Source of the DNA: Deferrisomatales bacterium
GTDB taxonomy: Bacteria > Desulfobacterota > Deferrisomatia > Deferrisomatales > JACRMM01
Direction: 5' to 3'
NCBI GenBank assembly: GCA_033551855.1
Contig: JAWSUI010000046.1
Location: 1 to 29,038 of the forward strand
Length of the DNA stretch: 29,038 nt
Below are positions 7,253 through 25,833 of this stretch, in pieces. Made by a program: the position numbers and the translations under genes. Below the pieces are notes generated by a model, which did no database searches, had not been told where the DNA came from, and was given only the letters and a program-made list of their open reading frames with translations. Within the stretch, counting starts at the first letter, position 1, and each line of letters begins with the position of its first letter.

Positions 7253-7568
7253 TCAGGTGCCGGATTGTCTCCTTTCCATGACATAACCTTTGGGGGTTTC
7301 GAACAACAGGTGTGCGTACTCTCGGTGGACGACACTCGAGGAGGGGATGTAATTCTTCCAAAATCTCCAGTCGTCTCATGATCTCTTCCGCAGTGTCCGG
7401 GCCGGGCGGCCTCCCCTCGCAGTACACCGCGGCCATGATCTCGTTCAGGCCGGTCACCGTCACCTTCGCCCCGTCTTGGAATCTCAATGTACGCCGGCTA
7501 ACTGCCGGCTGCCCGTCCTCGGCTCAAGTCGCTAAGCCGATGGATTGCAGCAGCGACGGGATGTTCAT
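7253..7568 (-). pseudogene. Putative selenoprotein gene (Sec15) with a 1-nt frameshift near 7358-7363; last gene of the ars operon
   Basis: ATG at 7568 overlaps the arsA stop (ATGA) and has a GGAGG RBS. It reads MNIPSLLQSIGLAT-TGA(7526-7524)-AEDGQPAVSRRTLRFQDGAKVTVTGLNEIMAAVY...EEIMRRLEI in frame. A one-base shift then gives KNYIPSSSVVHREYAHLLFETPKGYVMERRQSGT-stop (7253). Confidence 0.6.
7493..7526 (-). promoter_or_regulatory. Candidate bacterial SECIS element
   Basis: UGA, 14 nt, then a GCCGGC-AGUUA-GCCGGC stem-loop (7509-7493) with GU at the 5' side of the apical loop. Confidence 0.55.
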
Positions 7569-9316
7569 GTGATCCGTCCTCCGTTCGATTCCAGACCCAA
7601 GCCGGGCTCCGCATGCCATGGCAGTACCACGACCCGCGGATGGCTCTCGGTGACTTCCCTCAGGTACCGGGCTTCGGCCCGGCGGCGGGCCCGCAGCAGA
7701 GGGTCGGTCAGGGTCAGGGGAGTTAGGCTCTGATTCAGAACCCAGGCGTAGGGCTCGATGCCCGCCCGCCGCAGGTCCGCCTCCAGGGCGGCGGCCTCGT
7801 GCACCGGCGTTGCCTCGGGGAGCGCCACCAGGAGGACGCGGGTGAGCTTCGGATCCCGAAGGCGCGGCAGCAGATGGCGTACCGCCTCGGGCAGCGCCCC
7901 CGTGGACCGGGAGACCTCCCGGTGGTAGGCCTCGGCCGCATCGAGCAGGAGCAGGGTGTGACCGGTGGGGGCCGTGTCGATCACCACGAACGACTCTTCC
8001 GCGCGGGCCACCTCCCGGGCGAACGCCCGGAAAACGGCGATCTCCTCGGTGCAGGGGGAGCGCAGGTCCTCCTCCAGCAGGGCCCGGCCGGCGTCGTCCA
8101 GGTCCTTGCCCGCGGTCGCCATGACCTCCGCTGCGTAATCCCGGGTCTCGACCTTTGGGTCGATGCGGCTGACCGTGAGGTTGGGCGGAGTGTCCCCGGC
8201 GGCCGCCGCCACGTGGGCCGCCGGATCGGTGGTGGTGAGGTGTACGGCCCCCCCGCCGCGGGCAAGTGCCCGGGCCAGGGCGGCCGCTACCGTGGTCTTG
8301 CCCACCCCCCCCTTGCCCATGGTCATCACGACCCCCTTGCCGGCCTGCAGGAGGGGCGCGAGGAGGTCCTCGAAGCCAAGCCAGTCCCCCTGCACGGCGT
8401 CCTCGGCGGCGCCCGTCGCGATACCGTCGCCGTTGGGGCTCCAGAAGCGGCGCAGTGCGGGGAGGCCCAGCATCTCGAAAGGCTTCAAGGGAATCTCGCT
8501 CCGCGGCAGCCTTGCGAGCCCTGGCGGCAGATTCGCCAAAGCGGTCTCGACCCGCGCCTGCCACGCCGCCGCCACGGAATCCGCGGGGTCCTGGGCGACG
8601 AAGACGCCGTTGAGCACCAGGCTCTGGTTGGCCAGGCCGAGCGCGGCGAGCTCCCGGCCCGAGCGCTCGGCCTCGGCGAGGGACTCGGGATCCGGCCGGG
8701 CCACCAGGACCACAGCCGTCTGCGCCCCGTCCGAGAGCCGGGCCAGAGTGGCACGGAAGAGCACCTCCTGTTCCCGGAGCCCCGAGAGCGGGCCGAGGCA
8801 CGACGTGCCGCCGGCGTTGGCGTCGATGAACTGGGTCCAGGCGGCCGGCAGCTCCAGCAGGCGCAGGGTGTGGCCGGTGGGCGCCGTGTCGAACACCACG
8901 TGGCCGTAGCCGGCAGTGGCCGAGGGCTCGCCCAGGAGGCGCGCGAACTCGCCGAAGGCGGCGATCTCCACGGTGCACGCCCCGGAGAGCTGCTCTTCGA
9001 TGCTCTGGACCGCGGCGTCGGGGAGCACCCCCCGGTAGGGACCGACCACCTTCTCCCGGTAGGCGCGCGCCGCGGCCTCGGGATCGACGTTGAGCGCCTC
9101 GAGGCCCGAGGCGCCGGGAATCATGCAAGGCGCGGAACCCAGTGGCGTGCCCAGCACCTCGTCGAGGTTCGAGGCGGGATCGGTGCTGACCAGGAGCACC
9201 CGCTCGCCGCGCTCGGCCAGGGCGAGCGCCGTGGCGCAGGCGGTGGTGGTCTTGCCCACGCCGCCCTTGCCCGTGAAGAAGAGGTGGCGCGGCGCCTGCT
9301 TCAGAAACGAGTCCAT
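7565..9316 (-). CDS. arsA: Arsenical pump-driving ATPase
   Basis: Two GKGGVGKTT P-loops, two DTAPTGHT signatures, metalloid-binding cysteines (SGACT, SCLGP, SPCTEE). Confidence 0.97.
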   Translation of the reverse strand: MDSFLKQAPRHLFFTGKGGVGKTTTACATALALAERGERVLLVSTDPASNLDEVLGTPLGSAPCMIPGASGLEALNVDPEAAARAYREKVVGPYRGVLPDAAVQSIEEQLSGACTVEIAAFGEFARLLGEPSATAGYGHVVFDTAPTGHTLRLLELPAAWTQFIDANAGGTSCLGPLSGLREQEVLFRATLARLSDGAQTAVVLVARPDPESLAEAERSGRELAALGLANQSLVLNGVFVAQDPADSVAAAWQARVETALANLPPGLARLPRSEIPLKPFEMLGLPALRRFWSPNGDGIATGAAEDAVQGDWLGFEDLLAPLLQAGKGVVMTMGKGGVGKTTVAAALARALARGGGAVHLTTTDPAAHVAAAAGDTPPNLTVSRIDPKVETRDYAAEVMATAGKDLDDAGRALLEEDLRSPCTEEIAVFRAFAREVARAEESFVVIDTAPTGHTLLLLDAAEAYHREVSRSTGALPEAVRHLLPRLRDPKLTRVLLVALPEATPVHEAAALEADLRRAGIEPYAWVLNQSLTPLTLTDPLLRARRRAEARYLREVTESHPRVVVLPWHAEPGLGLESNGGRIT

Positions 9317-9320
9317 TTTC

Positions 9321-10022
9321 TCAGGCTCCGCAGCAGCCGGTGGACGGGTCGCACGCCGGCGGGGCGACGGCCAGATCGGGCTTGGCCGAGGCCGGCCCCG
9401 CCGGGGCGCAGCAAGACGGCGCGCCTCCCGCGGCCGGCTCCTCGCCGCAGCAGGCCTTCGGCGCCTCTTCCTCGGCAGCGCCCGCGACCTCCTCCTGCAG
9501 GTATCGCCCCGCGAGCTCCAGCATCGCCTTGGCTGGCGCGTTCTTCACCATCTGTGCCGTTCGCACCGCCCGAGCCATGTCCTCCCGGCTCACGCCCAGC
9601 TTGAGCGCCCGGCCGTAGTGTTGCTTGAAGCACGGCTCGCAGTTGGCGGCGATGGCCGCCCCGATGGCCACGAGCTCCTGCACGGCGCCGGAATAGAGCC
9701 CGGACTCTTCCCCCGAGCTGCCCAGGATCAGGCGGTCCAACTGCTCGCAGGTGGGGTAGGAGCAACGGCTCACGATCTTCCCGTTCACCAGGACCAGGGG
9801 CAGGCACTTCGGGCCTTCTACGGACAAAGCGTGCTTCACGACGTCGTTCCCGGCGAACGCCCCGGGATCCTGGGCGAGGTTGTAGCGCTCGACGCGCACT
9901 CCCTGCTCTTGCAGGCGCTCGAGGTCGGCGGCGAAGCGGGCCAGCACCGGGTCCACGCCGGGGCCGCACACGCCGGTGGAGCAGCACATGGGGGGGTCGA
10001 AGATCTGTAACGTCAGGGACAT
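9321..10022 (-). CDS. arsD: Arsenite metallochaperone ArsD fused to a CMD/AhpD-like CxxC domain and a Cys-Cys-rich tail
   Basis: IFDPPMCCSTGVCGPGVDPVL..RYNLAQDP is ArsD. It is followed by ELVAIGAAIAANCEPCFKQH..ALKLGVSREDM (CMD/AhpD) and a tail with ACC, SCC, AC, GCC. ATG at 10022 with GGAGAGGAG RBS. Confidence 0.9.
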   Translation of the reverse strand: MSLTLQIFDPPMCCSTGVCGPGVDPVLARFAADLERLQEQGVRVERYNLAQDPGAFAGNDVVKHALSVEGPKCLPLVLVNGKIVSRCSYPTCEQLDRLILGSSGEESGLYSGAVQELVAIGAAIAANCEPCFKQHYGRALKLGVSREDMARAVRTAQMVKNAPAKAMLELAGRYLQEEVAGAAEEEAPKACCGEEPAAGGAPSCCAPAGPASAKPDLAVAPPACDPSTGCCGA

Positions 10023-10060
10023 CGAAGATTCTCCTCTCCGTGTTGGGTATCGTCGCTGGT

Positions 10061-11413
10061 TCAGGACAGACAGTGGAAGACTCCCTTGCACCACAGGCAG
10101 TCGCCGCAGGGCTCCGTGTTGAGGAAGCAGTCCTGCTCGAACTCCTCGGCGGTCACGTAATCGCAGCACTTGGCCAGGTTGCAGTCCGAGCAGAAGGGGT
10201 AGTCGTAGCGGGTGACTCCCTCGCGGAAGGCGCGGTAGGCGGGGTCGTTCCAGATGTCGAGGATGCCGCGCTGCGCCACCTTCCCGAACACCCGGGGGCG
10301 CACGAACTTCTCGCGGCCGTTGATCAGGCACCGGTAGCCGTGCCAGAGAAAATAGCAGGGGTGGACGTTCCCGTCCCAGGAGACGAAGGCGCCGCCCTCC
10401 TCGACGAAGGCGCAGCGCCGGTCGCCGTGGGGGACGACCTCGGGCAGCCGGAGCTCGATCCCCTCCTCCCGGGCCGCTGCCTCGGCCGCGAGGAAGACCT
10501 CTCGGACACGGGAGATCCACGCCTCGTCCCTCTCGAGGATCTTCTGGACGTTGACGAAGACGTCGCGGGCGTGGGCCTCGGCCTTCATCGACTCGACGAA
10601 GGCGACGATCCGCTCCTCCTCCGCGGTCTTCGTGTACTTCCACAGAACCTCGAAGTAGCGCCCCAGGTCCACCCCCTCGGCCCGGGCCCGCTTCCTCCAG
10701 GGCTCGAAGAACCCGACGGCCACGTCGGTGTTGGGGTCGTAGGCGGCCTGGGAAACGAGGCGCTCGTCGTAGGGCATCACCTGGGTGACCAAGGCGAAGG
10801 TGGCACCCCGCCGGGCCGCCCAGCGTACGACCTCGGGAAGCTCGCCCACGTTGTCGCGCATGGCGACGAACTCGATGCCCTTGGCGATCCGGCGGCCGGT
10901 GGCGGCCTCGGCTCGGGCCAAAGCGGAGAGGCCCCGGTCTACCGCGCCCACCTCGCCCCCCTCCCGCAGGCGTCGGAAGGTGGCAGGAGAGACCGCGTCC
11001 AGGGAGAGGCAGATGCGGTCCAGGCCGGCCCGGGCCAATGACAGGGCCCGGGCGTCGTCGAGGAGGAGCCCATTGGACTGGAACCCGATCCAAGACGATT
11101 CCGGCATCGCCCGCCGGGCCAGGCGAATGAACCCCTCGAGCCCCGGGTGCAGGAGCGGCTCGCCGATGCCCGAGAGCACCAACGTCTGCAGGTGGGGAAA
11201 CGCAGGACCCAGGGCGTCGAAGGTGGACAGCGAGAGGTCTCCCTCCGCGATCCCGTTGCCCGCCGTCTGCTTCACGCACATGGTGCAGCGCAGGTTGCAC
11301 CGGGTCGTCGTCTCGACGAAGAGCTTCGATGGGTGGGATTGCTGCGCCGGCAACCGACGGGTGTCTGGGCAACGGGGTTCTTCCTGCGTCGCTGCGCTCC
11401 CTTCGAGGTACAT
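10061..11413 (-). CDS. Radical SAM/SPASM protein resembling the deltaproteobacterial putative metalloenzyme maturase family
   Basis: HPSKLFVETTTRCNLRCTMC (CxxxCxxC), GIGEPLLHP, and a Cys-rich SPASM C-terminus (CAFV..PCYF..FCSDC..CCD..DC..PCGDCLWCKGVFHCLS). Start at 11413 has better RBS spacing than 11422. Confidence 0.88.
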   Translation of the reverse strand: MYLEGSAATQEEPRCPDTRRLPAQQSHPSKLFVETTTRCNLRCTMCVKQTAGNGIAEGDLSLSTFDALGPAFPHLQTLVLSGIGEPLLHPGLEGFIRLARRAMPESSWIGFQSNGLLLDDARALSLARAGLDRICLSLDAVSPATFRRLREGGEVGAVDRGLSALARAEAATGRRIAKGIEFVAMRDNVGELPEVVRWAARRGATFALVTQVMPYDERLVSQAAYDPNTDVAVGFFEPWRKRARAEGVDLGRYFEVLWKYTKTAEEERIVAFVESMKAEAHARDVFVNVQKILERDEAWISRVREVFLAAEAAAREEGIELRLPEVVPHGDRRCAFVEEGGAFVSWDGNVHPCYFLWHGYRCLINGREKFVRPRVFGKVAQRGILDIWNDPAYRAFREGVTRYDYPFCSDCNLAKCCDYVTAEEFEQDCFLNTEPCGDCLWCKGVFHCLS

Positions 11414-11441
11414 GCGAGGCATTCTCCGAAAGGCGGCGGCC

Positions 11442-12305
11442 TCAGCCGTGGACCAGGAGCACCGGCGCCCTGGCGCGGCGAACCAGGCTGTAGGCCGTGC
11501 TCCCCAGGAGCATCCCGGGCAGCTGCCCCCAGCCTCGGGTCGCCATGAGAACGAGGCCCACGCCCTCCCGTGCGGCGTGCTCGAGGAGGACCTTGCGCGG
11601 GTCGCCCTGGGTGATCACCGATTCCACTCGGTCGCATCCGGAACCCCTGAGCACCTCGGTCATGTCCGCGAGCCGCCGGGCGTCGTCCTCCGTGTAGCTT
11701 GCCGCGATCTCCGGGGACAGATGCTCCCACGCCACTCGCTGATTCACGTGGACGAGGGAGATCTGTCCAATCCGGCCGGCCAGCCCCTGGAGCGCCTCGA
11801 GGGCTTTCCGAGAGGCCTCGGAGAAATCGGTGGGGAAGAGCACGTGGTCGAGGGCCCTGGAGAAGCGGAGCGGGCAGTACCGGCCTCCGTCCTGCCCCAT
11901 CAGGCTCATCCGCAGCACCAGCACCGGGCAGGGGGAGTACTCCACGATCCGCGCGGCGGTGCCCCCCAGGAGCGAGCTCAGCACGGCGCCCCGGCCGTGG
12001 GAGGCGGTGACGACGAGATCCGCCCCGGCTTGCCGAGCGGCCTCCACCACCTCGTACCAGGCGACCCCCTTGGCAAGCCGAATCTCCACTTCGTAGCCCT
12101 GCCCGCGAAGGGTTTCTGCTTGCATTTCGAGGTCGGGGAGGTGGTCCGCCGCGAGGGCGTCGTCGAGGCCCACCGAGTACCGCGTCTCGGCCACGTGGGC
12201 CAGCGTGACCCGCTGGGTGCCGAGACCCTGGAGTTGAGCGGTACACTCCAAGAGGGGGCCGGAGCCGGCGGAGAGGTCGGTGGCGATCAAGGCGTGGGGG
12301 AACAT
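11442..12305 (-). CDS. Tandem universal stress protein (two USP domains)
   Basis: ALIATDLS..LVVTASHGRG..LLGGTA, then VLFPTDFSEAS..LMATRGWG..LLGSTAYSLVRRARAPVLLV. Confidence 0.9.
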   Translation of the reverse strand: MFPHALIATDLSAGSGPLLECTAQLQGLGTQRVTLAHVAETRYSVGLDDALAADHLPDLEMQAETLRGQGYEVEIRLAKGVAWYEVVEAARQAGADLVVTASHGRGAVLSSLLGGTAARIVEYSPCPVLVLRMSLMGQDGGRYCPLRFSRALDHVLFPTDFSEASRKALEALQGLAGRIGQISLVHVNQRVAWEHLSPEIAASYTEDDARRLADMTEVLRGSGCDRVESVITQGDPRKVLLEHAAREGVGLVLMATRGWGQLPGMLLGSTAYSLVRRARAPVLLVHG

Positions 12306-12414: not shown

Positions 12415-13482
12415 CTATGCCCGCACGGGCAGGCCTTCCGGTCCGAAGTGCTTGAGCTTCAGCCTCAAGGCCACGTTCACCAGGCTGATGAGCACCGGCA
12501 CCTCCACCAGGGGGCCGATGACCGCCGCGAAGGCCTCTCCCGAGTGGAGCCCGAAGACGGCCACGGCGACGGCGATGGCCAGCTCGAAATTGTTGGAGGC
12601 GGCCGTGAAGGAGAGCGTGACCGTGTGACCGTAGGGGGCGCCGACCTTCCGGCTCATCCAGAAGGACACGAAGAACATGGCGAAGAAGTAGATCGTCAGC
12701 GGGATCGCGATCCGGACCACGTCGAAGGGGAGCTGGATGATCATCTCGCCCTTCAGGCTGAACATCACGACGATGGTGAAGAGCAGCGCGATGAGCGTGA
12801 TGGGGCTGATGCGGGGGATGAACTCCTTCTCGTACCACTCCCGGCCCTTGGTCTTGAGACCGATGACCCGGGAGAGGATGCCGGCGATGAAGGGGATGCC
12901 GAGGTAGATGAAGACGCTCTCGGCGATCTCGGCCATGGTGATGTCCACCACGATCGCGTCCCCCAGGCCCAGGACCGACGGGAGCCACGTGATGAAGAAC
13001 CAGGCGTACACGGAGAAGAAGAGCACCTGGAAGACCGAGTTGAACGCCACCAGGCCCGCGCAGTATTCCGTGTTGCCCTTGGCCAGGTCGTTCCAGACGA
13101 TCACCATGGCGATGCAGCGGGCGAGCCCGATGAGGATGAGGCCGACCATGTACTCCGGGTAGCCCCGAAGGAAGATGATCGCGAGCAGGAACATGAGGAC
13201 CGGCCCCACGACCCAGTTCTGGAGGAGTGAGAGCGCGAGCACCTTCTTGTTCTGAAAGACCCGGGGGAGCTCCTCGTACTTCACCTTGGCCAGGGGCGGG
13301 TACATCATGAGGATGAGGCCGATGGCGATGGGGATGTTGGTGGTCCCCACCGTGAAGAACTCGATGACCTCGGTCACGCCCGGGAAGAGCCAGCCGCCCC
13401 CTACCCCCACGAACATGGCCAGGAAGATCCACAGGGTCAGGTACCGGTCGAGGAACGAGAGGTTCTTGGCGACTCCGGACAT
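12415..13482 (-). CDS. acr3: ACR3-family arsenite efflux transporter
   Basis: [34 protein letters not shown] (catalytic Cys), [21 protein letters not shown] at 13482 with GGAGGAG RBS. Confidence 0.96.
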
Positions 13483-13484
13483 GC

Positions 13485-13901
13485 TCACTCCTCCTTCAAG
13501 AAAGACGCGACCCGGTTGCCGATCTCGTCTCGCACCCGGCGAAACACTGCCAGGACCTCGTCCTGGGTTCCTCGGGCCTCCGCCGGGTCGTCGAAGGGCC
13601 AGTGCTGTCTCGCCTTCACCTTCCCGAGGAAGACGGGGCAGGACTCCCGCGCCCCGCCGCACACGGTGACGAGGAGATCCAGGTCGTCCCCCAGCACTTC
13701 GTCCACGGACTTCGAGCGTTGGTCCGAGATGTCCACCCCGGCCTCGGCCATGACCCGGACGGCCAGGGGGTTGACCCCCTGGGGCCGGGTCCCGGCGGAC
13801 AGGGCGTCGTACCGGTAACCCCCCAGGTGCCGGAGCCAGCCCTCGGCCATCTGGCTGCGGCAGGAATTGCCGGTGCAGAGGAATAACACTCGCTTCTTCA
13901 T
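13485..13901 (-). CDS. arsC: Arsenate reductase, thioredoxin-coupled LMW-PTP type
   Basis: [18 protein letters not shown]-loop, resolving cysteines [18 protein letters not shown]. Confidence 0.93.
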
Positions 13902-13923: not shown

Positions 13924-14274
13924 TCAGGCGACCGAACGGCCGCAGAGCTCTTCCCGACACACGCCGCGGGCCCTCGCTCGCAGCTCCCCTGCCTCAGCGA
14001 AAGACTCGGCCGCCGAACGAAGGTGGGCCAGGAGCCCCTGGACCAGCGGAGGCGGGAGCGGGTTCTGTCGGTAGTTCTTCCAGGGCCCAACCCGCTCCGA
14101 CACCACGAACCCCGAGTCCTCGAGCACCTGGAGGTGCCGGGACACCGTGGACTGGGCCAGGCCCAGGATTGCCTGGATTTCGCACACGCAGAGCTCCCGT
14201 TCCTCGAGCATCCACAGGATGCGCAGGCGAGACTCGTCAGAGAGGGCTTTGAAGCGGGCGAGCACCGAGTCCAT
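13924..14274 (-). CDS. arsR: ArsR/SmtB-family As(III)-responsive repressor
   Basis: FKALSDESRLRIL..ELCVCEI..QSTVSRHL, plus C-terminal CREELC. Heads the ars operon. Confidence 0.92.
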   Translation of the reverse strand: MDSVLARFKALSDESRLRILWMLEERELCVCEIQAILGLAQSTVSRHLQVLEDSGFVVSERVGPWKNYRQNPLPPPLVQGLLAHLRSAAESFAEAGELRARARGVCREELCGRSVA

Positions 14275-14285
14275 GTTCCCCTCAT

Positions 14286-14334
14286 ATCGTTCCGAGGCGA
14301 TCCAGACCCTACCCGGATGACCCCCGCCTGTCAA
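14286..14334 (-). promoter_or_regulatory. ars operon sigma70 promoter and candidate ArsR operator
   Basis: Minus strand TTGACA (14334-14329), 17-nt spacer, TAGGGT (14311-14306). ATCG-N8-CGAT inverted repeat at 14286-14301 lies at or after the start site. Confidence 0.6.
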
Positions 14335-14423
14335 GCCAGTTTCCTAGGCTGATCGGCGCATGCGTCCAACCCTGCGCTCCGAGCCATCCTCGAGTGCCAT
14401 GCATTTCGGAAAAATTATCCCCC

Positions 14424-14452
14424 TTGACGCCGGTCACTCATGCCACTACCAT
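14424..14452 (+). promoter_or_regulatory. Sigma70-like promoter of the second ArsR operon
   Basis: TTGACG (14424-14429), 17-nt spacer, TACCAT (14447-14452). Confidence 0.6.
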
Positions 14453-14480
14453 TCTGTTATGTTTCTTGCGGAGGAGGACG

Positions 14481-14789
14481 ATGAGTCGAACACACTCGCG
14501 CCGAGCCGAGATCCTCAAGGCCCTGGGTCACCCTTCCCGCATCGCGATCCTGGAGATCCTGCGACGGGGAGAGGAGTGCGTGTGCCGGATCTGCCCCCAG
14601 CTGGACGGCACCCAGCCCAACACCTCGAAACACTTGGCGGTTCTCAAGAAGGCCGGGATCCTCGGCTCCCGCCAGGAGGGCACCATGACCTTCTACTGGG
14701 TGGTGGACACCCGCGTGTACGAGATCCTCGAGCTCGCCGACGAGATGATCCGCCGCGAGGGCCGGGGGAGGCTGCGGGAGGTGGGTTGA
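14481..14789 (+). CDS. Second ArsR/SmtB-family regulator
   Basis: AEILKALGHPSRIAILEIL..EECVCRIC..NTSKHLAVLKKAGIL. ATG at 14481 with GAGGAGG RBS. Confidence 0.9.
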   Translation: MSRTHSRRAEILKALGHPSRIAILEILRRGEECVCRICPQLDGTQPNTSKHLAVLKKAGILGSRQEGTMTFYWVVDTRVYEILELADEMIRREGRGRLREVG

Positions 14790-14840: not shown

Positions 14841-15236
14841 ATGACAATGGCCGAGCGGATTTCACGATGGACGAGGTGTGGTCTGGCCGTAGCGGCGGCG
14901 CTCGCCCTCTCCTCGACAGCCCTCGCGGGGGCGGCGCCCACCCTCGTGTTCCTCACCAAGAGCGATGAGTGCGAGTGTGTGCTGAACGTCAGCGTGGCGG
15001 GTGAGCAGGAGGTGGTGAACTTCATCGCGGACAACCCTTACGGCTTCCAATACGAGAGAATCGACCTGGCGGAGGACCCGGCTGCCGGGCGGGCATACCG
15101 CGTGTTCGCGGTCCCCGTCGTCGTGCTCCAGGACGAGGAAGGCCGGACCGTGGCCCGTTTCGATTCCTTCTTCACCGAGGCGGATTTCTACAAGGCTTGG
15201 GGGGCGTACGAGAAGAAGCGGGGAGGGCAACAGTGA
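14841..15236 (+). CDS. Exported thioredoxin-fold protein with CxC motif
   Basis: Signal peptide (..ALSSTALAGAA), LVFLTKSDECEC, ERIDLAED..YRVFAVPVVVLQDEEG (cis-Pro loop). Start at 14841 or 14847. Confidence 0.7.
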   Translation: MTMAERISRWTRCGLAVAAALALSSTALAGAAPTLVFLTKSDECECVLNVSVAGEQEVVNFIADNPYGFQYERIDLAEDPAAGRAYRVFAVPVVVLQDEEGRTVARFDSFFTEADFYKAWGAYEKKRGGQQ

Positions 15237-17095: not shown

Positions 17096-17096
17096 C

Positions 17097-17801: not shown

Positions 17802-17835
17802 GGCGGGAGGAGATCCAACCGTGGTGGAGGACATC

Positions 17836-18219
17836 ATGAAGAGGCTCGTGATCGAGTGGCGGCACCTGGAAAGCGAGGGCCGCACCTGTGACCGCTGCTC
17901 GGACACGGGGGAGGCGGTGCGGAAGGCATTTGCCGATCTGGAGAAAGACCTCGCCCCGGAGGGCGTCCGCGTGTCCCTGGTGGAGACGGTGCTCGGGGAG
18001 GACCGCGTCCGGGAGTCGAACGAGATCCGATTCAACGGGGTGCTGCTGGAGGACCTGCTCCCCGCCGCGCGCGCGGGAGAGAATGCTTGCTGCTCCTGCA
18101 CGGAGCTCCTGGCCGTGGAGACCTCGTGCCGAACCGTGGAGATCGGGGAGCAGAGCCTCGAAGCAATCCCCGCCGAGCTGATTCGCCAGGCGGCCCGCAG
18201 GGCTGCGGGCCTCGAGTGA
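17836..18219 (+). CDS. DUF2703-like Cys-rich protein
   Basis: MKRLVIEWRHLESEGRTCDRCSDTG..ESNEIRFNGVLLEDLL..CCSC..CRT..EAIPAELIRQA. ATG at 17836 with GGAGG RBS. Confidence 0.75.
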   Translation: MKRLVIEWRHLESEGRTCDRCSDTGEAVRKAFADLEKDLAPEGVRVSLVETVLGEDRVRESNEIRFNGVLLEDLLPAARAGENACCSCTELLAVETSCRTVEIGEQSLEAIPAELIRQAARRAAGLE

Positions 18220-18281: not shown

Positions 18282-18512
18282 GTGAAAATCGAAGTGCTCG
18301 GAACCGGCTGCCCGAAGTGCCAGAAGCTCTACGAGGCGGCCAAGGAAGCAGTGTCCAGGACCGGCGCCGACGCCCAGGTGAGCAAGGTGGAGGACCTCGG
18401 CGAGATCATGAAGCGGGGGATCATGGTCACCCCGGCCCTCGCGGTGGACGGGCAGATCAAGTCCGCGGGCAAGGTGCTCAAAGCCGATGACATCGCGAAA
18501 TTCTTGGGGTGA
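18282..18512 (+). CDS. Small redox-active disulfide protein (MTH895/thioredoxin_3 family)
   Basis: KIEVLGTGCPKCQKL..IMVTPALAVDG..GKV. Confidence 0.92.
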   Translation: MKIEVLGTGCPKCQKLYEAAKEAVSRTGADAQVSKVEDLGEIMKRGIMVTPALAVDGQIKSAGKVLKADDIAKFLG

Positions 18513-18521: not shown

Positions 18522-18893
18522 TCACCTGGCGATGAAGCGCACCCCGGGCAGCCCTTCGAGTTCGGAGTCAGAGGTGGCGAGCTCGGCCCGGTAACGCACC
18601 GCGGTCGCGTACACGATGGCGTCGGCCATGGCGAGGCGCTTCTTGGTCGAGAGGTCTGCGGCTTCGAGAGCCAGAGGAGCGTCCAGCGGTACGATACGGG
18701 CTTGCTGCATGAACCCGGAGCAGCGCAGGGCCGCCTCCTCCCCCGCGGTCCTCGCGAGGAGCTTGTATACCTCGTAGAGTACCACGGTGGGCACGAGCAA
18801 CTCCTCCGGATGAGCAAGAAGAGTCGAGTACGTGCCGGCGGCGGGGCCGTCGGTGAAGACCTCGAGCCAGCCGCACGAGTCTACGAGGATCAC
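18522..18893 (-). CDS. vapC: Type II TA toxin, VapC/PIN domain
   Basis: ILVDSCGWLE..VPTVVLYEV..LAMADAIVYATA..LATSD acidic PIN motif. GTGA overlap with the antitoxin. Confidence 0.9.
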   Translation of the reverse strand: MILVDSCGWLEVFTDGPAAGTYSTLLAHPEELLVPTVVLYEVYKLLARTAGEEAALRCSGFMQQARIVPLDAPLALEAADLSTKKRLAMADAIVYATAVRYRAELATSDSELEGLPGVRFIAR

Positions 18894-19099
18894 GGGAGCC
18901 GCTCGGTCTTCTCACGGAAGCCGCGGACGTCGATTCCCCTCGCGATGCCGCGCAGATCCTCGAGGGAGGGCACGGGCACCAGATAGACGATGCCCCCTTT
19001 CTCGAAGACCTGGAGCTTCTGCCTGGGACGCAGCCCGGCGGCCTCACGGACCGGTCGAGGAATGACTACCTGGTACTTGGAGGATACCGTGGTTTCCAT
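18890..19099 (-). CDS. vapB: AbrB/MazE/SpoVT-family antitoxin
   Basis: METTVSSKYQVVIPRPVREAAGLRP. ATG at 19099 with GGAG RBS. Confidence 0.88.
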   Translation of the reverse strand: METTVSSKYQVVIPRPVREAAGLRPRQKLQVFEKGGIVYLVPVPSLEDLRGIARGIDVRGFREKTERLP

Positions 19100-19142
19100 G
19101 CGGGTCTCCATCATGTTGCACTGATTTGGTATCGTTCACGAA

Positions 19143-19188: not shown

Positions 19189-19380
19189 ATGAAGAAGGAA
19201 GTGACCGTCCGACTGGACACCGAGGAAGTGATTTCGCTGGAGCGCTGCCTCTCGGACCGGAATGCCGAGGAGGCCTTCCAGCTGTTGAAGCAACTCGCCG
19301 AGAAGGTCCGCCACGCACAGTTCACGGCGTGACGCCCCTACTTCGAGATGCGCGGCGCGCATCCGATTCCGCCGGGGTGA
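19189..19380 (+). CDS. Small putative selenoprotein (63 aa, Sec48), absent from the ORF track
   Basis: ATG at 19189 with AAGGGAG RBS. Sequence MKKEVTVRLDTEEVISLERCLSDRNAEEAFQLLKQLAEKVRHAQFTA-TGA(19330-19332)-RPYFEMRGAHPIPPG-stop. A SECIS-like hairpin follows the TGA, and read-through ends 16 nt before nifS. Confidence 0.7.
19330..19379 (+). promoter_or_regulatory. Candidate bacterial SECIS element
   Basis: UGA, 14 nt, GAUGCGC-GGC-GCGCAUC (19347-19363), extendable by UCG/CGA. Lower stem CGCCCC (19333-19338) pairs with GGGGUG (19374-19379). Confidence 0.6.
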
Positions 19381-19396: not shown

Positions 19397-20524
19397 GTGA
19401 TCTACCTCGACCACAACGCCACCACGCGGCCGGACCCGGCCGTGGTGGATGCCCTCTCCTGGGCCACGGAGCACGCGTGGGGCAACCCGTCCACGCTGTA
19501 CCGCGCCGGGCGTGAGGCCAAGGGCGTGCTCGACGCCGCGCGGGGGAAGGTGGCCCGGTTGATCGGTGCCAGGGACCCGGCCCAGGTGGTCTTCACCTCG
19601 GGCGGGACCGAGGCCGACGCGCTGGCCCTCTTCGGGGTGCTCCGCCGGCCGGGACAGGGAGGGCGCCATCTCGTCACCTCGCTGGCCGAGCACAAAGCGG
19701 TACTTCGGACCGGGGTCCGTTTGGAGGCCGAGGGGTTTCCGGTTACGTTCCTGCCCGTGGACGGCCTAGGCCGAGTCGACCCGGAGATGGTTGCCCGAGC
19801 CCTGCGGCCGGACACGGCCCTGGTATCGTTCCTGCTCGCGAACAACGAGGTGGGCACCGTGAACCTTGTGGGAGAGATCGCGTCCGTCTGCCGAGAGGAG
19901 GGGGTGCCCGTTCATACCGACGCCGTGCAGGCCTGCGGAAAGATCCCCGTGGACGTGGAGGAACTGGGCGTCGACCTCGTGAGCCTCTCGGGCCACAAGT
20001 TCCACGGGCCGCGAGGGATCGGGGCCCTCTGGGTGCGGCCGGGAACGGTGCTCCAGCCCCTCCTGGTCGGAGGAACCCAGGAGCGCGGGCTCCGGGCCGG
20101 CACCGAGCCCGTTGCTTTGGCCCACGCCCTGGGCGTGGCGGCCGAGCTCGCAAGGTCTCGCCTCGAAACGGATGGGGCACGAATCCGGGCGCTGCGGGAC
20201 CGCCTCTGGGAGGGGCTTCGCGAGGCGGTCCCGGGCGTCCGGGCCCACGGCGACCGGGATCGGGGCCTCCCGAACACCCTCAACGTCTCGATCCCGGGGC
20301 GGGAGGCCGAGGCCCTCGTGCTGGCCCTCGACGAGGCGGGAATCGCCGTGGGCACCGGATCCGCCTGCAGCACCGGCGACACCCGCCCCTCCCACGTGCT
20401 CCTGGCCATGGGTGTGCCGCCGGCCGAAGCCCGCGCGTCGATCCGATTCAGCCTGGGGAGGGCGAATACCGACGCGGAGGTGGGCGCCGCCGTGGAGGCG
20501 CTGGGGCGGATCGCCCTGGCGTAG
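19397..20524 (+). CDS. Group I cysteine desulfurase (NifS/IscS family; possible selenocysteine lyase activity)
   Basis: IYLDHNATT, FTSGGTEAD, HTDAVQ, SGHKFHGP (PLP lysine), GTGSACS (catalytic Cys). Confidence 0.93.
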   Translation: MIYLDHNATTRPDPAVVDALSWATEHAWGNPSTLYRAGREAKGVLDAARGKVARLIGARDPAQVVFTSGGTEADALALFGVLRRPGQGGRHLVTSLAEHKAVLRTGVRLEAEGFPVTFLPVDGLGRVDPEMVARALRPDTALVSFLLANNEVGTVNLVGEIASVCREEGVPVHTDAVQACGKIPVDVEELGVDLVSLSGHKFHGPRGIGALWVRPGTVLQPLLVGGTQERGLRAGTEPVALAHALGVAAELARSRLETDGARIRALRDRLWEGLREAVPGVRAHGDRDRGLPNTLNVSIPGREAEALVLALDEAGIAVGTGSACSTGDTRPSHVLLAMGVPPAEARASIRFSLGRANTDAEVGAAVEALGRIALA

Positions 20525-20592
20525 AGCGGGGCGCGTCCCGCAGGCACACTTTTCCGATGGGCGGCGAGCCCCGCCCCCCGAAGGAGGGTTCC

Positions 20593-21150
20593 ATGCCTCT
20601 GGTCAACCGTTACGAGATCGTCAAGGTCCTGCCTTGCATCGCCGACACCGCTCTAATCCGGGTGGTGGCGACCCTCGACGCAGACATCGGCGAGGCTCTG
20701 CCCTACCTGAACGCGACCCTGAAGAAAGTGGTCTTCAATCCCGGGGGCAAGACCCTGACCTACAAGGTAGAGGGGATGTGCTTCACCTTCCACCAGAACG
20801 GCATCACAGCCACCAAGCTCCGGGACGTGGAGCACGCCCACCAGGAACTGCAGGCCATGGTGGACCGGGTGAACGACGTCTGGGAGCGGCGGGCCGAGAT
20901 CACGCCGAGCTTCGAGCGGGGGGTCCAGCTCACGGCGCTCCAGATCTACAAAGGGCTCCCGGCCACCAACTGCAAGGAGTGCGGCGAGCCTTCCTGCCTC
21001 GCCTTCGCGGCCAAGCTCCTCTCGGGCACGATCAGTGTGCTCGCGTGCAAGCCCCTCTTTACCCCGGAGTTTCGGGAGAAGCGGGGAAAGCTCTTGGAGC
21101 TCCTGGAGGAAACGGGCTACGAAGTGCCGCCCGAGTTTCTTTCAGCGTGA
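20593..21150 (+). CDS. (Fe-S)-binding protein with C-terminal putative Fe-S cluster domain
   Basis: N-terminal LPCIAD..ALPYLNA, C-terminal IYKGLPATNCKECGEPSCLAFAAKL..CKPL. ATG at 20593 with AAGGAGG RBS. Confidence 0.85.
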   Translation: MPLVNRYEIVKVLPCIADTALIRVVATLDADIGEALPYLNATLKKVVFNPGGKTLTYKVEGMCFTFHQNGITATKLRDVEHAHQELQAMVDRVNDVWERRAEITPSFERGVQLTALQIYKGLPATNCKECGEPSCLAFAAKLLSGTISVLACKPLFTPEFREKRGKLLELLEETGYEVPPEFLSA

Positions 21151-21211
21151 CCCGCGACGACACAGCCGCAAAAGCCGGCGATGGGGACCGGCAGCGAAGA
21201 GGAGGTGACCC

Positions 21212-21421: not shown

Positions 21422-21457
21422 TCCACGGCCGGGGCGGCGGCCCCGGGGGAGAACGCC

Positions 21458-22318
21458 ATGTTCCGGACGATCCTGATCCCTTCCGACCTGTTCGGCGCGA
21501 CACCCGACTTTCCTCACTGCTTCCGGGGCGCGGGTGCGGTTGGGGTAAAAGAGGCGCACCTGGTGCAGCCGATCCCGCCCGTCGCGCTCGGGCGGGCCGC
21601 AAGCCTGCTCCAGGGCCTGGCCCGGCCGGTTCTCGAGGAGCAGCGGACCCAGCTCGAGGCGTTGGGGTTGCGGGTCACGACCCACACACCCCAGGGAGAG
21701 CCGGTGGCGGCCATCCTGGGAGTGGCCGCGCGCCAAAAGGCCGAGGTGATCGCCGTCTCGTCCTTCGCGGAGAACCTCTTCGTCGAAGCCCTCGTGCACC
21801 CACTCGCCGACGCCCTCCTGAACCAGTCGGCGCTTCCCCTGCTGGGGCTCGGTTGCGGGCGCAGCGCCGAGGTCTGCCTCCCCTTGGACCAGGTGTTCGG
21901 CGGCCGCGTTCTCTTCGCGACGGACTTCTCGGGTTGCGCGGCCAGCGCCCGCACCCGCGTGCGGGGGATCGTGGCCCGAACCGGCGCCGAGGTGGTCGCC
22001 CTTCACGTGCAGGAGAAACGCCGAATCTTCCCCCACCTGGCCGACCGATTGGAGGAGTTCGACCGCACCGACCGGGAGCGGCTGGAAACCCTGGCCCGAG
22101 ACCTTCGGGAGGCCGGCGCCCGGGCGGTGCAGGCAGAGGTGGAGCTCGGCCACGCCGGGCCTGCGATCTGCGACGCCGCCCGAAGGCTCTTCGCGACCCT
22201 CGTCGTCCTCGGCACCCGGGGACGGGGCTGGGGCGAGGAGCTCTTCGTGGGCAGCGTGGCCCGCCACGTGGCCCGCCACAGTCCGGTGCCCGTGCTTCTC
22301 ATCCCCCAGCCCCGGTGA
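21458..22318 (+). CDS. Tandem universal stress protein, paralog of 11442..12305
   Basis: MFRTILIPSDL, VLFATDFSGCA, LVVLGTRGRG..LFVGSVARHVARHSPVPVLLIP. Confidence 0.88.
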   Translation: MFRTILIPSDLFGATPDFPHCFRGAGAVGVKEAHLVQPIPPVALGRAASLLQGLARPVLEEQRTQLEALGLRVTTHTPQGEPVAAILGVAARQKAEVIAVSSFAENLFVEALVHPLADALLNQSALPLLGLGCGRSAEVCLPLDQVFGGRVLFATDFSGCAASARTRVRGIVARTGAEVVALHVQEKRRIFPHLADRLEEFDRTDRERLETLARDLREAGARAVQAEVELGHAGPAICDAARRLFATLVVLGTRGRGWGEELFVGSVARHVARHSPVPVLLIPQPR

Positions 22319-22761: not shown

Positions 22762-22794
22762 ACCGACCCGGTCCCCCGACAGAAGATAGGGCGA

Positions 22795-24762
22795 ATGATT
22801 CGAGCCATTTCCTGCGCCGTGTTCCTCGGCCTGCTCCTGTCCGCCGCCGTCGCAGCGCCCGGGGCCGTCGCGGCCGCCCCTGAACCCGTGCGTGTCCATT
22901 TCTTCTGGGCGTTCGGTTGCCCCTACTGCGAGCAGGAAAAGGTCTTTCTGGACGACCTGCTCCAGCGGCACACCTCCGCCGTGGAGATCGTCGGCTACGA
23001 AATCTCCCGGGATCCGGACAACCAGCGGCTGCTGCAGGACATGGGCGCGGCCCACGGCTTCACCCCGACCACGATACCGGTCACCTTCATCGGCGGCGCC
23101 TACTGGCAGGGGTACCGCCCGTCGTTGGCCGGGGAGATGGAGGCGCACGTCCTGCGCTGCCTCGGGGGCGAGTGCCCGGACGTCGGGGGAGAGGTGCTCG
23201 CCCGCCGCGCCCCGGGGGGAGGAGCGCTCGCGTCGCCGGGGGACCCGGGCGGGGAAGGGGCCCCTCCCGTTGCCGGGGGAGCCCGGGGCAACGCGACCAT
23301 CGACGTGCCCTTTTGGGGTACGTTCGACCTCGGTGCCGGCTCGCTGGTCTACGCCACGGCCGTGATCGCCTTCGTGGACGGGTTCAACCCCTGCTCCCTG
23401 TGGGTGCTCTCGATGCTGCTGGCCATCGTGATCCACACGAGCTCCCGAAGGAAGATCTTCATCGTGGGGGGGACCTTCCTCCTGGTCACCGCGACCGTCT
23501 ACGGGGCCTTCGTCGCGGGGATGTTCAACGTGCTCGCGTACCTCATGTACATCGGTTGGGTGACGTACCTCGTGGCGGCGATCGCCATCGCGTTCGCCGC
23601 GATCAACATCAAGGACTACTTCTTCTTCCGGCAGGGCGTCTCCCTGACGATCTCCGACAAGCACAAGCCGGGGATCTTCAAGCAGATGCGGGGGACGGTC
23701 GCGGGGGACAAGTCCGTCCTGGCCATGATCGGGACCACCGCCGTCATGGCAGCGGGCATCACCGTCATCGAGCTTCCGTGCACGGCCGGCTTCCCCCTGG
23801 TCTGGAGCGGCCTCGTGGCTTCCCATCAGGTGGGGCTCGTGTCGTTCGCCGCGCTCCTCGTGCTCTACATCGCGGTCTACCTCTCGGTGGAGATCGTGAT
23901 CTTCGCGGCGGCGCTCACCACCCTGAAGATGGGCAAGCTCCAGGAAGCGCAAGGGCGCGTGCTCAAGCTCGTCGGCGGCACCGTCATGCTGTTCCTGGGG
24001 ATTGCGCTCGTCGCCGACAAGGAGATCCTGTCGAGCCTGTCGGGGACTCTGTTGGTCTTCGGGCTCGCAGCCGGCACCTCGCTGCTCGTCCTGGTGCTGC
24101 ACCGCCTCGTGCTGCCCCGCTGGGGCGTCTTCCTGGGAAGCGAGAAGCCGGCGGCGGACGTCGGGCCGAAGCCCGGGGAAGGGCGACGGGGATTCGCGCT
24201 GCTGCGCGCACCCAAGGCGGTGGCCCTCGCCCTGGCGGCCCTGGTACTGCTGGGCCTGGCCTACTTCCCGGCCCTCCTGGGAGCCCGCCCGGACCCCGAG
24301 GCGAAACCCCTTCACGAGGGGACGGCGGCGACCCGGGTGGGAAACCGCAGCCTGGAGACCGAGTTGACGCTGGTCTTCTCTCCGGAAGACCCCGCCGGCA
24401 ACGAAGTGCTGGCGGCGCTGCTGGCCCACCCCGGCTGCACCGTGCACCTGAACCCCACCGGGCCGGTGGCGTCCCCGGCGTCCGCCGCGTGGGCGGGGCT
24501 CCCCAGGAGGGACTACGATCCCCTGGTCAACGCCTCCGTCGCGCGCCTCTTCGGTTTCGGCAACCTGCCCATCCTCATCGTGACCACCGGGGACGAGCGG
24601 CAGATCCTCGGCGAGCCCTCCAGGATCGTCTCGACGATCAGCAGCTTGTGCAGGGCCCCCGAAACCCCCCTGCCTTCGCTGGCGCCCACCTGGGGGTCCG
24701 GCAGCCTCCTGCTGCCCCCGGAGCCCGGTTGCGGGATCGCGGCGGAGTCGGATTGCGACTGA
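22795..24762 (+). CDS. Exported glutaredoxin/thioredoxin domain fused to a CcdA-like membrane domain and a C-terminal degenerate thioredoxin-like domain
   Basis: Signal peptide from MIRAISCAV, FFWAFGCPYC, IPVTFIGG, membrane region with DGFNPCSLWVL and IELPCTAGFP, then an extra TM and a C-terminal domain. The true start is likely 22795 within ORF 21181..24762. Confidence 0.8.
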   Translation: MIRAISCAVFLGLLLSAAVAAPGAVAAAPEPVRVHFFWAFGCPYCEQEKVFLDDLLQRHTSAVEIVGYEISRDPDNQRLLQDMGAAHGFTPTTIPVTFIGGAYWQGYRPSLAGEMEAHVLRCLGGECPDVGGEVLARRAPGGGALASPGDPGGEGAPPVAGGARGNATIDVPFWGTFDLGAGSLVYATAVIAFVDGFNPCSLWVLSMLLAIVIHTSSRRKIFIVGGTFLLVTATVYGAFVAGMFNVLAYLMYIGWVTYLVAAIAIAFAAINIKDYFFFRQGVSLTISDKHKPGIFKQMRGTVAGDKSVLAMIGTTAVMAAGITVIELPCTAGFPLVWSGLVASHQVGLVSFAALLVLYIAVYLSVEIVIFAAALTTLKMGKLQEAQGRVLKLVGGTVMLFLGIALVADKEILSSLSGTLLVFGLAAGTSLLVLVLHRLVLPRWGVFLGSEKPAADVGPKPGEGRRGFALLRAPKAVALALAALVLLGLAYFPALLGARPDPEAKPLHEGTAATRVGNRSLETELTLVFSPEDPAGNEVLAALLAHPGCTVHLNPTGPVASPASAAWAGLPRRDYDPLVNASVARLFGFGNLPILIVTTGDERQILGEPSRIVSTISSLCRAPETPLPSLAPTWGSGSLLLPPEPGCGIAAESDCD

Positions 24763-24843
24763 CGGGGATGAAACCGCCGCTCCACCGGCGGCGGCCCGGA
24801 CTGCGCAAGTCGTGTGCTTCGCCGAAGCACCCGGTCAGCGGCC

Positions 24844-25833
24844 TCAGGTGGCGCCCGGGGCGTGGGGCGCCGCGGCGGTATCCGGGCTCGCCGACGGCGA
24901 GCCGCCGGGACCCCTCATCCTCTCGAACATGAGCCGGGTCTTGTAGGCTACCACGCTCATCGAGATGGCTGCCGCCGCATCCATCTCGTCGTCGCTTGCG
25001 CCGTTCTCCCTCGCGACCGCGAGGCTCCAGTCGGTTCAGAGCTCGCAGCCGCCGGCGAGGGAAGCGGCCAGGAACAGAAGCCCCTTGGTCTTCCCGTCGA
25101 GCACCGCGCTCTGGTGGGTGGCGTCGAAGAACTCCTGGAATTTGTCCATGGGCCGGACCATGCGTTCCTCCTCTGAAGATCGGGAAACCACGTTCCCGCT
25201 GCGCCGCAGGGCCACCAGGTAGAGGTCTCGCGGCAGGCTCCCCTCCGCCGCGCGATCGATGGCCAGGACCTCGTAGCCCCGCGCGAGTCGGCGGATCCTC
25301 TCCTCGCTGAAGAAGTGGACGACGAACCCGCCCACCTCGTAGAGATCCTCCCGGAGGTGGGTTCCCGCCCGGTAGTGCTTGTCGAAACGGCTCCGCACCG
25401 AGTACAGGTTGAGTCCCCCCGGACGAAGGACGCGGCGGATCTCGCCGAGGAGGAAGGCAACCTCCTCCGTGCCGAGCTCCATGCAGAGAAGCATGTGGGA
25501 AAAGCAGCCGTCGAAGGAGCCGTCCGGGAAGGGAAGGGGCTGCCGAAGGTCCTGGACGTGCGCGGACACGAGTTCGGAAACCCCGCCCCGCTTCGCCGCC
25601 TCCGTGACCTCCTCGACCGCCCTGGGCGAGTAGTCGAGCGCGGTGACCCGCATCCCGGCGTTCGCGAAAAGAAGGGTGTCCCGCCCCTGGCCGCAGCCGA
25701 GCTCGAGAACGTCCCGAACCCCGGCGTCCCGGAAGCGCTCCAGGGCGAGCTTGGCGAAGTCGCTCGGGCCCTCCCCGAAGAAACTCGGGCTCGCCGTGTA
25801 GACCTCGGTCCAGTGGGTCCGCTGGTCTGCCAT
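24844..25833 (-). CDS. Class I SAM-dependent methyltransferase fused to a CMD/AhpD-like selenoprotein domain (CxxU, Sec266; 329 aa with read-through)
   Basis: Methyltransferase motifs VLELGCGQGRD, ALDYS, LPFPDGSFD, RVLRPGG. These are followed by AVLDGKTKGLLFLAASLAGGCEL-TGA(25038-25036)-TDWSLAVARENGASDDEMDAAAAISMSV.., which completes the CMD fold. Next stop at 24846-24844. Confidence 0.85.
25009..25038 (-). promoter_or_regulatory. Bacterial SECIS element
   Basis: UGA, exactly 11 nt (ACCGACUGGAG), then CCUCGC-GGUC-GCGAGG. Same spacing and GGUC loop as the E. coli fdhF SECIS. Confidence 0.8.

Follow-up and report, generated by a model that had tools for sequence, protein, structure and literature searches.

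Comparative analysis of a 29,038-nt stretch of DNA (hereafter the window; 69% G+C), which is contig C46 (JAWSUI010000046.1) of the 132-contig genome bin of a Deferrisomatales bacterium, distinguished four UGA codons in three genes that are read as codons for selenocysteine (Sec): (i) two in the gene of MduS, a fusion of an S-adenosylmethionine (SAM)-dependent methyltransferase with an AhpD/CMD domain, (ii) one in the gene of a small protein of a family designated here Fam2, and (iii) one in the gene of a small protein of another family, Fam1. Each of the four codons is followed by a hairpin of the selenocysteine insertion sequence (SECIS) type, a putative one in Fam2, and all three genes are cut short by gene callers. 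Fam1 and Fam2 are uncatalogued, neither having a model in Pfam or NCBIfam release 20.0, and MduS is already known. Judged from its predicted genes, the region is composed of two divergent operons, each headed by an ArsR regulator gene, and a convergent MduS gene. The best explanation, in which we have moderate confidence, is that of two ArsR-headed operons plus MduS, with four Sec codons, with Fam1 and Fam2 acting in arsenic handling and with a Fam1 copy that is decaying in this genome.

The genome decodes Sec and has the complete machinery for it. The selA (573 bits), selB (307 bits, cut-off 242) and selD (367 bits) genes, the presence of which the initial annotation had left to be confirmed, were all found, together with a tRNA-Sec called by aragorn and scoring 70.9 bits in Rfam (gathering score 47). 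The selD gene (G000:C50:3310-4233, L010) has one in-frame TGA, i.e., SelD is itself a selenoprotein. A second tRNA-SeC candidate of aragorn (G000:C8:65254-65343) is absent from the Rfam tRNA-Sec matches and was rejected.

The three in-frame TGAs listed in the initial annotation are where it had placed them, and the hairpins start, as it had claimed, 14 nt (Fam1), 14 nt (Fam2) and 11 nt (first MduS codon) after the TGA (Table 1). In such a G+C-rich window a hairpin alone proves little, since 38 of the 516 TGA triplets present (7.4%) pass a crude hairpin rule (a 6-7 bp stem starting 8-20 nt past the TGA and a loop that has G as its first or second base). Compared with shuffled sequences, the Fam2 site is the sole outlier (z -3.2; -1.1 and -0.5 at the other two sites), and an Rfam scan of the window found no family at gathering score. 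The hairpins alone are weak evidence for Sec here and, as they do not go beyond chance, the case for Sec rests on the homologues. Homologues of all three genes stay conserved downstream of the UGA, a check that the initial annotation had asked for, and all three of its TGAs are best read as Sec codons.

Fam1 is a family of small proteins with a predicted N-terminal double-Sec motif, G-U-x-x-U. Scans of the window copy and of intact homologues against Pfam and NCBIfam (E<=1) returned no meaningful family. Six-frame searches yielded relatives with in-frame TGAs, and a profile built from five members matched 1332 proteins of a large protein collection at E<=1e-3, none with a Pfam domain and none with an informative name. 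Most of these proteins are 76-83 residues long, having been assigned a start codon that lies past the UGAs, and some gene calls read W where the DNA has TGA (e.g., G-W-V-T-W). Within the phylum, Fam1 matches occur in 96 of 401 genomes. The motif G/N/Q-U-x(2-5)-U precedes the conserved core in 28 of 30 related loci, and there are also Cys forms with CC, CCC or CCCC (YCCTP in P0008, GSCCC in P0052, GSCCCC in P0074 and GGACCAP in L053). The hairpin after the second UGA has a 6-bp stem, in which 88.1% of the cells are paired in 29 sequences, a share that falls to 44.6% or less on sliding the 3' partner. Covariation is seen as changes on both sides in two pairs (10 cells; GC17/AU6/GU2 and AU18/GC4), and the stem variants are CCGAC/GUCGG, CCAAC/GUUGG, CCGGC/GCCGG, CCACC/GGUGG and CCAGC/GCUGG. 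The family therefore combines a conserved in-frame UGA, Cys homologues and a covarying SECIS at a fixed distance.

An ACR3 gene lies within 1.5 kb in 12 of the 30 Fam1 loci outside the window, and 7 more have homologues of other genes of the region (ArsA/ArsD/radical SAM, ArsP, DsbD, thioredoxin, DUF2703, Fe-S protein or NifS). Among the remaining 11, three adjoin Methyltransf_31, one a CDF transporter with an FMN reductase, and one TauE with Thioredoxin_3. The Fam1 core domain is also found as the N-terminal half of fusions of ~166 residues, the C-terminal half of which is a thioredoxin of the MTH895/ArsE type (two sequenced: L039 and L042). Such fusions, the Fam1-like part of which lacks Sec, are seen in G270 (L039:1859-2356) and appear to occur in many other genomes, and they probably account for most of the weaker Fam1 matches. 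The structure model of Fam1 (predicted local distance difference test score 73) has a disordered N-terminal arm carrying U-x-x-U, followed by a beta-hairpin and three helices. In a wide VIA search the best hits of this model (Z 5.6) were generic three-helix/homeodomain-like bundles, below the meaningful level of the tool, and the ESM Atlas searched with the Cys form gave no usable match. Complex prediction for the ACR3 of genome G021 and the neighbouring Cys-form Fam1 paralogue gave no answer (score 0.01) and counts neither way.

The initial annotation saw in the window copy of Fam1 a Sec gene ending the ars operon; its placement and its Sec codon stand, and the copy itself looks degenerate. 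Where relatives have the first TGA there is a TTA codon, which is one base from TGA and makes up 3 of the 800 Leu codons counted in 22 window genes. One G too many at 7358/7359 puts the conserved C-terminal part (KNYIPSSSVVHREY...) in another frame, ending at 7253-55, and two nearly invariant residues, E-Y, are changed to T-P. As assembled, the gene is not intact, having both the frameshift and the TTA at the first Sec position. Logan contigs of relatives that are ~88-91% identical lack the extra base in 4 of 4 runs. Genome G001 of the same genus has a Fam1 gene with both Sec codons and a fragmented arsA: at L075:2987-3310, between arsD-ahpD and this intact two-Sec Fam1, arsA is reduced to two fragments (residues 48-83 and 507-582). 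These fragments suggest that the operon is decaying in this lineage. The window Fam1 copy is itself probably decaying, with one Sec codon left.

Fam2 is a second uncatalogued small Sec/Cys family, with the predicted motif U-x-P-x-F-E; Pfam and NCBIfam scans (E<=1) of the window copy and its homologues again revealed no meaningful family. The TGA and the following R-P-Y-F-E-M-R-G-A-H-P-V/I-P-P-G are kept in genomes G002 (89% identical) and G012 (67% identical). The 35 nt past the TGA are almost invariant in DNA, and the codons that lie beyond the hairpin differ between the window and G012 by 6 changes, 5 of them at third positions, which fits translation. A scan of the phylum found Fam2 matches in 50 of 401 genomes, 13 match rows having one TGA; in 12 of these the TGA stands at the same position and is followed by x-P-x-F-E or D-P-F-P, and the TGA of the other (G222), considered as a Sec codon, proved to be an ordinary terminal stop. 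With G002 added, the Sec forms number 13 and come from genomes of several families. When 15 sequences are aligned, the Sec column holds nothing but U (13) and C (2; G085 and G150), and the Pro after it is invariant, so that a conserved in-frame UGA is paired with Cys homologues in the same column. Minimum-energy folds of the segment from +7 to +45 place a stem-loop, the candidate SECIS, shortly past the UGA in 11 of the 13, in differing sequences. A search for further related loci returned only the 3 known loci among genome contigs and only 5 non-Sec forms among metagenome contigs. The ESM Atlas searched with the Cys form returned nothing beyond clusters of "hypothetical protein" that share no Pfam family. 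The protein is modelled as two helices and a disordered tail carrying the Sec. In one relative of 57 residues (P0161) a Cys-rich tail, Q-C-G-C-S-E-S-C-C-S, takes the place of the U-x-P-x-F-E or S-H-L-D tail.

The initial annotation made Fam2 the head of a nifS operon, a position that is not upheld: in a relative, Fam2 directly follows the gene of an ArsE-type thioredoxin on the same strand. The order ArsE-type thioredoxin, Fam2, NifS, Fe-S protein is found in the window and in G012, thioredoxin, DsbD, Fam2, Fe-S protein in G217, and ACR3, Fe-S protein, Fam2 (Cys form) in G085; in 3 loci a non-Sec form comes immediately after ACR3. Seven genomes have, to judge from coordinates only, a Fam1-like match that is followed after 258-308 nt, on the same contig and strand, by a Fam2-like one; this gap is about the size of the thioredoxin half of the fusion, which suggests that a Fam2-like gene directly follows a Fam1-thioredoxin fusion there.

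The third gene, taken in the initial annotation for a methyltransferase fusion with one Sec codon, is indeed a selenoprotein gene; its product is the catalogued MduS, and a second Sec codon with its own hairpin had been overlooked. The product matches the NCBIfam model NF045649 (methyltransferase domain-containing selenoprotein MduS, "2X_seleno_MduS") with 502 bits when the first UGA is read through, and with 510.8 bits (cut-off 380) over profile positions 5-338 of 338 when both UGAs are read as Sec. The gene at 24835-25833 accordingly combines a score above the cut-off, full-length coverage, both Sec positions and a SECIS hairpin for each UGA. The Pfam CMD match spans the first UGA. Full-length MduS with two Sec residues was found above the cut-off in 3 of 301 phylum genomes, i.e., the window genome, G010 and G014, each gene having 2 TGAs. 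The three proteins are ~61% identical, yet their genes do not differ at all over the 34 nt past the first UGA, and they also share the 3'-UTR hairpin that follows the second one (GUGCUUC-GGC-GAAGCAC); the linker region of the protein diverges although both hairpins are conserved. MduS is listed with the motif CxxU and 2 Sec, and credited to Haft and Tolstoy (2025), in a 2026 review (PMC13188914), and the window gene shows no material difference from this known family. With the double and triple selenoproteins ArsM/AhpD (NF041537) and ArsM/DUF2284 (NF041536), it shares a methyltransferase, an AhpD-type CxxU and an arsenic-related setting. It scores 107.9 bits against the former (cut-off 510) and 19.7 against the latter (cut-off 575), and its methyltransferase domain is closer to TehB- and CpaM-type models than to ArsM.

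The minus-strand operon has the order arsR, acr3, usp, radical SAM, arsD-ahpD, arsA, Fam1, and is a genuine arsRDA/acr3 operon, its ArsR (85.9 bits, cut-off 55), ArsD, ArsA and ACR3 all scoring above their cut-offs on one strand (Table 1). The order on the plus strand is arsR, two thioredoxins, ArsP-type permease, DsbD, DUF2703, ArsE-type thioredoxin, Fam2, nifS, Fe-S protein, usp, membrane thioredoxin-like protein. The neighbours named in the initial annotation were recognized (two ArsR, an ArsP_1 permease, one DsbD/CcdA conduit, thioredoxin-fold proteins, a radical SAM/SPASM enzyme, two universal stress proteins and NifS), with the exception of a second CcdA-type conduit: the 657-residue protein considered for this role has no significant similarity to DsbD (E 0.31) and no Pfam or NCBIfam match, and the assignment was rejected as unproven. 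Its hydrophobic stretches contain NPC and PCT motifs. The ArsD-AhpD fusion has a C-E-P-C motif and a CC...CC...CC tail; its AhpD part is weakly similar to that of MduS (22 bits), and the same fusion occurs in G001. The setting of ArsR, ACR3, ArsA, ArsD, ArsP and thioredoxin genes was likewise borne out, but the island initially proposed is interrupted by toxin-antitoxin cassettes. The operon of G012 (L024), collinear in other respects, lacks one of these, the PIN/MazE pair. To the left of the region (1181-5549, minus strand) lies a molybdate-related block with an ABC permease, a ModA-like binding protein, a PadR-TOBE regulator and a MobA-MobB fusion, and within it a CMD-family protein (3854-4273) that has no Cys motif.

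Table 1. Predicted genes, Sec codons, hairpins and other features of the region (window positions).
Feature	Position	Strand	Remarks
Fam1 gene	7253-7568	-	last gene after arsA; ATG overlaps arsA stop codon (ATGA)
Fam1 Sec codon TGA	7524-7526	-	second U of U-x-x-U
Fam1 TTA (Leu) codon	7533-7535	-	first TGA stands here in 28/30 related loci
Fam1 SECIS hairpin	7493-7509	-	GCCGGC-AGUUA-GCCGGC; conserved, covarying across the family
Fam1 GG (one-base insertion)	7358-7359	-	single G in relatives; KNYIP... part moved to another frame
Fam2 gene	19189-19380	+	63 residues, Sec at residue 48 in U-R-P-Y-F-E; stop 19378-19380 included
Fam2 Sec codon	19330-19332	+	invariant alignment column
Fam2 SECIS-like hairpin	19347-19363	+	GAUGCGC-GGC-GCGCAUC
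MduS	24835-25833	-	SAM-methyltransferase + AhpD/CMD fusion, double selenoprotein; stop codon 24835-24837 included
First MduS Sec codon	25036-25038	-	motif C-E-L-U, residue 266; hairpin 25009-25024 (CCUCGC-GGUC-GCGAGG)
Second MduS Sec codon	24844-24846	-	end ...A-T-U-G-R, residue 330; hairpin 24814-24830, beyond the stop codon
ArsA, arsenical pump-driving ATPase	7565-9316	-	TIGR04291, 744.7 bits, cut-off 650
ArsD + AhpD/CMD-type domain	9321-10022	-	NF033727, 116.2 bits, cut-off 90; CMD E 8.4e-9; Cys-rich tail
Radical SAM/SPASM (rSAM_Geo_metal)	10061-11422	-	TIGR04311, 630.3 bits, cut-off 400
USP1, tandem universal stress protein	11442-12305	-	
ACR3 arsenite efflux transporter	12415-13662	-	TIGR00832, 463.2 bits, cut-off 282.8
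ArsR/SmtB regulator 1	13924-14334	-	heads minus-strand operon
ArsR/SmtB regulator 2	14394-14789	+	heads plus-strand operon
Secreted thioredoxin-like protein, CxC motif	14841-15236	+	weak Thioredoxin_2 match
Thioredoxin, CxxC, hydrophobic N-terminal stretch	15197-15691	+	stretch seen in sequence
ArsP_1-family permease, Cys form (CSC)	15905-17095	+	distant relative of SO_0444 and SaoE transporters
DsbD/CcdA-type transmembrane thiol-electron conduit	17097-17801	+	
DUF2703 protein	17794-18219	+	
MTH895/ArsE-family thioredoxin-like protein	18282-18512	+	TIGR00412, 101.7 bits, cut-off 62
NifS/IscS-type cysteine desulfurase	19397-20524	+	
PF04060 Fe-S cluster domain protein	20557-21150	+	recurs beside Fam2 in other genomes
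USP2, tandem universal stress protein	21458-22318	+	
657-residue protein	22789-24762	+	CPYC thioredoxin/glutaredoxin-like N-terminal part, signal or anchor, putative membrane-spanning hydrophobic stretches
AbiEii/AbiEi toxin-antitoxin cassette	5621-7170	-	directly downstream of Fam1
PIN toxin / MazE-AbrB antitoxin pair	18522-19114	-	between ArsE-type thioredoxin gene and Fam2
ParE/Phd-YefM toxin-antitoxin cassette	27955-28525	-	near right window end

Comparison of gene neighbourhoods across genomes, as suggested in the initial annotation, showed that parts of the gene set recur, but that the full set is found together in no other genome. In G012 the thioredoxin, thioredoxin, ArsP, DsbD, ArsE-type thioredoxin, Fam2, NifS and Fe-S protein genes follow one another on one strand with short gaps, and G002 has the divergent arrangement of the window up to the end of its contig. 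A single contig of G021 holds, within ~9 kb, a homologue of the MduS methyltransferase domain, ArsR, ACR3, three Fam1 genes, DsbD, thioredoxin, ArsE-type thioredoxin and ArsP. Both the Fam1 and the Fam2 profile are matched in 24 genomes, compared with ~12 expected if the two were independent (two 401-genome scans), a figure that assumes the same genome sample for both scans and is only rough, the genomes being related.

ArsD is an arsenic metallochaperone that hands As(III) over to ArsA via Cys12, Cys13 and Cys18. Fam1 resembles it in being a small soluble protein, encoded in ars operons and provided with a short cluster of chalcogen ligands (U-x-x-U or CC/CCC/CCCC). It differs in showing no sequence similarity to ArsD and no match to PF06953 or NF033727, in its use of Sec, in its predicted fold (beta-hairpin, three helices and disordered arm) and in having ACR3 as a neighbour more frequently than ArsA; the window, moreover, already encodes a true ArsD at 9321-10022, as a fusion with AhpD. 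Selenoproteins with a UxxU motif are known, namely a Prx-like oxidoreductase, the metal-binding protein NF041115 and the FmdB-family protein TIGR02605 (as given in a table of PMC13188914). Fam1 shares with them two Sec residues three positions apart, presumably served by one downstream SECIS, but matches none of their models even at E<=1.

The same source describes two types of selenoprotein gene neighbourhoods, SAO (Sec-assisted organometallic) and Tso (three selenoprotein operon) (PMC13188914). As far as they are characterized there, the region resembles them in its metal- or metalloid-related setting and in its clustered selenoprotein genes, accompanied by a permease, an ArsR-type regulator and thioredoxin-like and DsbD-like proteins. 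Its selenoproteins, however, belong to different families. Among 21 window proteins scanned, the best value for an SAO family was that of SaoE (105.4 bits, cut-off 325), and SaoL, SaoC, SaoB, SaoX, SaoP and SaoT were unmatched, in line with the distinctness from SAO clusters claimed at the outset. As for the Tso families, TsoB reached 77.4 bits (cut-off 805) and TsoR 42.9 (first ArsR) and 40.9 (second ArsR; cut-off 115), and TsoA, TsoC and TrsS gave nothing above cut-off among the window proteins. No description of Fam1 or Fam2 was found in the literature, a comparison outside which lay the work of Haft and Tolstoy (2025), where overlap is likeliest, and one or both families may already be in print.

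Both Fam1 and Fam2 alternate between Sec and Cys at key positions. Most likely, the flexible N-terminal diselenol (or Cys-cluster) arm of Fam1, set on a small helical domain, would bind trivalent arsenic and, by analogy with ArsD, which uses cysteines, would pass it on to efflux proteins. Fam2, in its structure model a two-helix protein, would present a single selenol or thiol on a flexible tail with the motif U/C-x-P-x-F-E; it would most likely serve as a metalloid carrier or else as redox partner to its neighbours, the ArsE-type thioredoxin and the Fe-S-domain protein. MduS probably methylates or redox-processes a metalloid or thiol substrate. A selenol-based pathway of arsenic reduction, transfer, methylation and export, as proposed in the initial annotation, is plausible from the gene neighbourhood only. 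More tentatively still, and with some doubt on our part, Fam1 and Fam2 might be dedicated selenium carriers for trivalent arsenic or thio- and organoarsenicals, in an undescribed Sec-dependent pathway working with ACR3/ArsP-type permeases, ArsE-type thioredoxins, DsbD and the Fe-S protein and widespread in anaerobic sediment bacteria.

Several observations weigh against the interpretation of the region as an arsenic-handling system with Sec-containing carriers. The function proposed for Fam1 is read from its gene neighbourhood alone, and 6 of its 30 loci have unrelated neighbours or are too short, with 5 more only loosely related; a Foldseek comparison of the Fam1 model with the PDB matched no solved fold (best E 0.38). 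Neither an arsenate reductase (ArsC) nor a bona fide ArsM was found among the window open reading frames scanned. MduS is rare in the phylum, as noted above, and Fam2 is present in only 3 of 21 genomes of the window's class. For Fam2, in addition, two distant members give whole-segment folds that do not surpass those of shuffled sequences (z -0.19 and -0.14), the commoner non-Sec relatives (68-76 residues) have Leu and not Cys at the Sec column, and a profile made from these non-Sec forms awards nothing for the tail (full protein 26.6 bits, truncated protein 27.5, shuffled tail ~26.4). The missing tail score would also suit the view that the TGA at 19330 is an ordinary stop, that the gene product is a 47-residue peptide and that what is conserved downstream is an RNA leader regulating nifS; in ~18 protein clusters the product called has 47 residues, and the near-invariance of the 35 nt past the TGA is what an RNA element would show. 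This is nevertheless very improbable, as U-x-P-x-F-E (or U-D-P-F) is kept in 13 genomes with differing DNA past the UGA, two homologues have Cys at exactly the Sec column followed by the same Pro, no nifS follows Fam2 in G217 or G085, the changes in the codons behind the hairpin are mostly at third positions, and every read-through frame ends 10-21 codons past the UGA.

In the case of the window's Fam1 gene, the frameshift might have arisen by an error in assembling a metagenome bin of low coverage, the gene being intact in the living cell, where a single-Sec L-A-T-U protein would work. The first 69 residues are intact, as are the Sec codon and the SECIS hairpin, and the only contig exactly matching the window strain has a depth of 3.5 and covers 7559-7650, a stretch that does not reach the frameshift. 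We consider this rather doubtful in view of three independent lesions (TGA to TTA, a rare Leu codon here, the extra G, and E-Y to T-P), of the absence of the extra base from the contigs of relatives, and of the operon decay suggested by the fragmented arsA of G001. On a broader scale, the genes might be co-located without forming one system: an ordinary arsRDA/acr3 operon, a Fam2-NifS-Fe-S group for sulfur, selenium or Fe-S trafficking, and MduS as an unrelated redox methyltransferase. The AbiE, PIN/MazE and ParE/Phd cassettes do break up the region, the MduS genes of G010 and G014 have no other gene of the set nearby except an ArsR-like gene in G010, NifS stands between Fam2 and the Fe-S protein only in the lineage of the window, and no other genome unites the whole set. 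Even so, separate systems appear unlikely, given the uninterrupted one-strand run of G012, the G021 contig that joins an MduS-domain homologue, three Fam1 genes and ars genes, the Fam2 relatives located directly after ACR3 in 3 loci and beside ACR3 and the Fe-S protein in G085, and the co-occurrence, however rough, of the Fam1 and Fam2 profiles. The reading of two ArsR-headed operons plus MduS, with Fam1 and Fam2 probably in arsenic handling, is the one retained here.

Current annotation hides these selenoproteins, all three genes being truncated by gene callers, and family models that allow U would correct the annotation in hundreds of genomes. Fam1 alone has more than 1000 members in public data, and stands beside arsenite pumps. 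If such small proteins bind arsenic through selenium, they would do with selenium what the chaperone ArsD does with cysteine, and would tie the selenium and arsenic cycles of anoxic sediments directly together at the molecular level. Should the selenium-carrier pathway exist, the availability of selenium would directly set the arsenic tolerance of these organisms.

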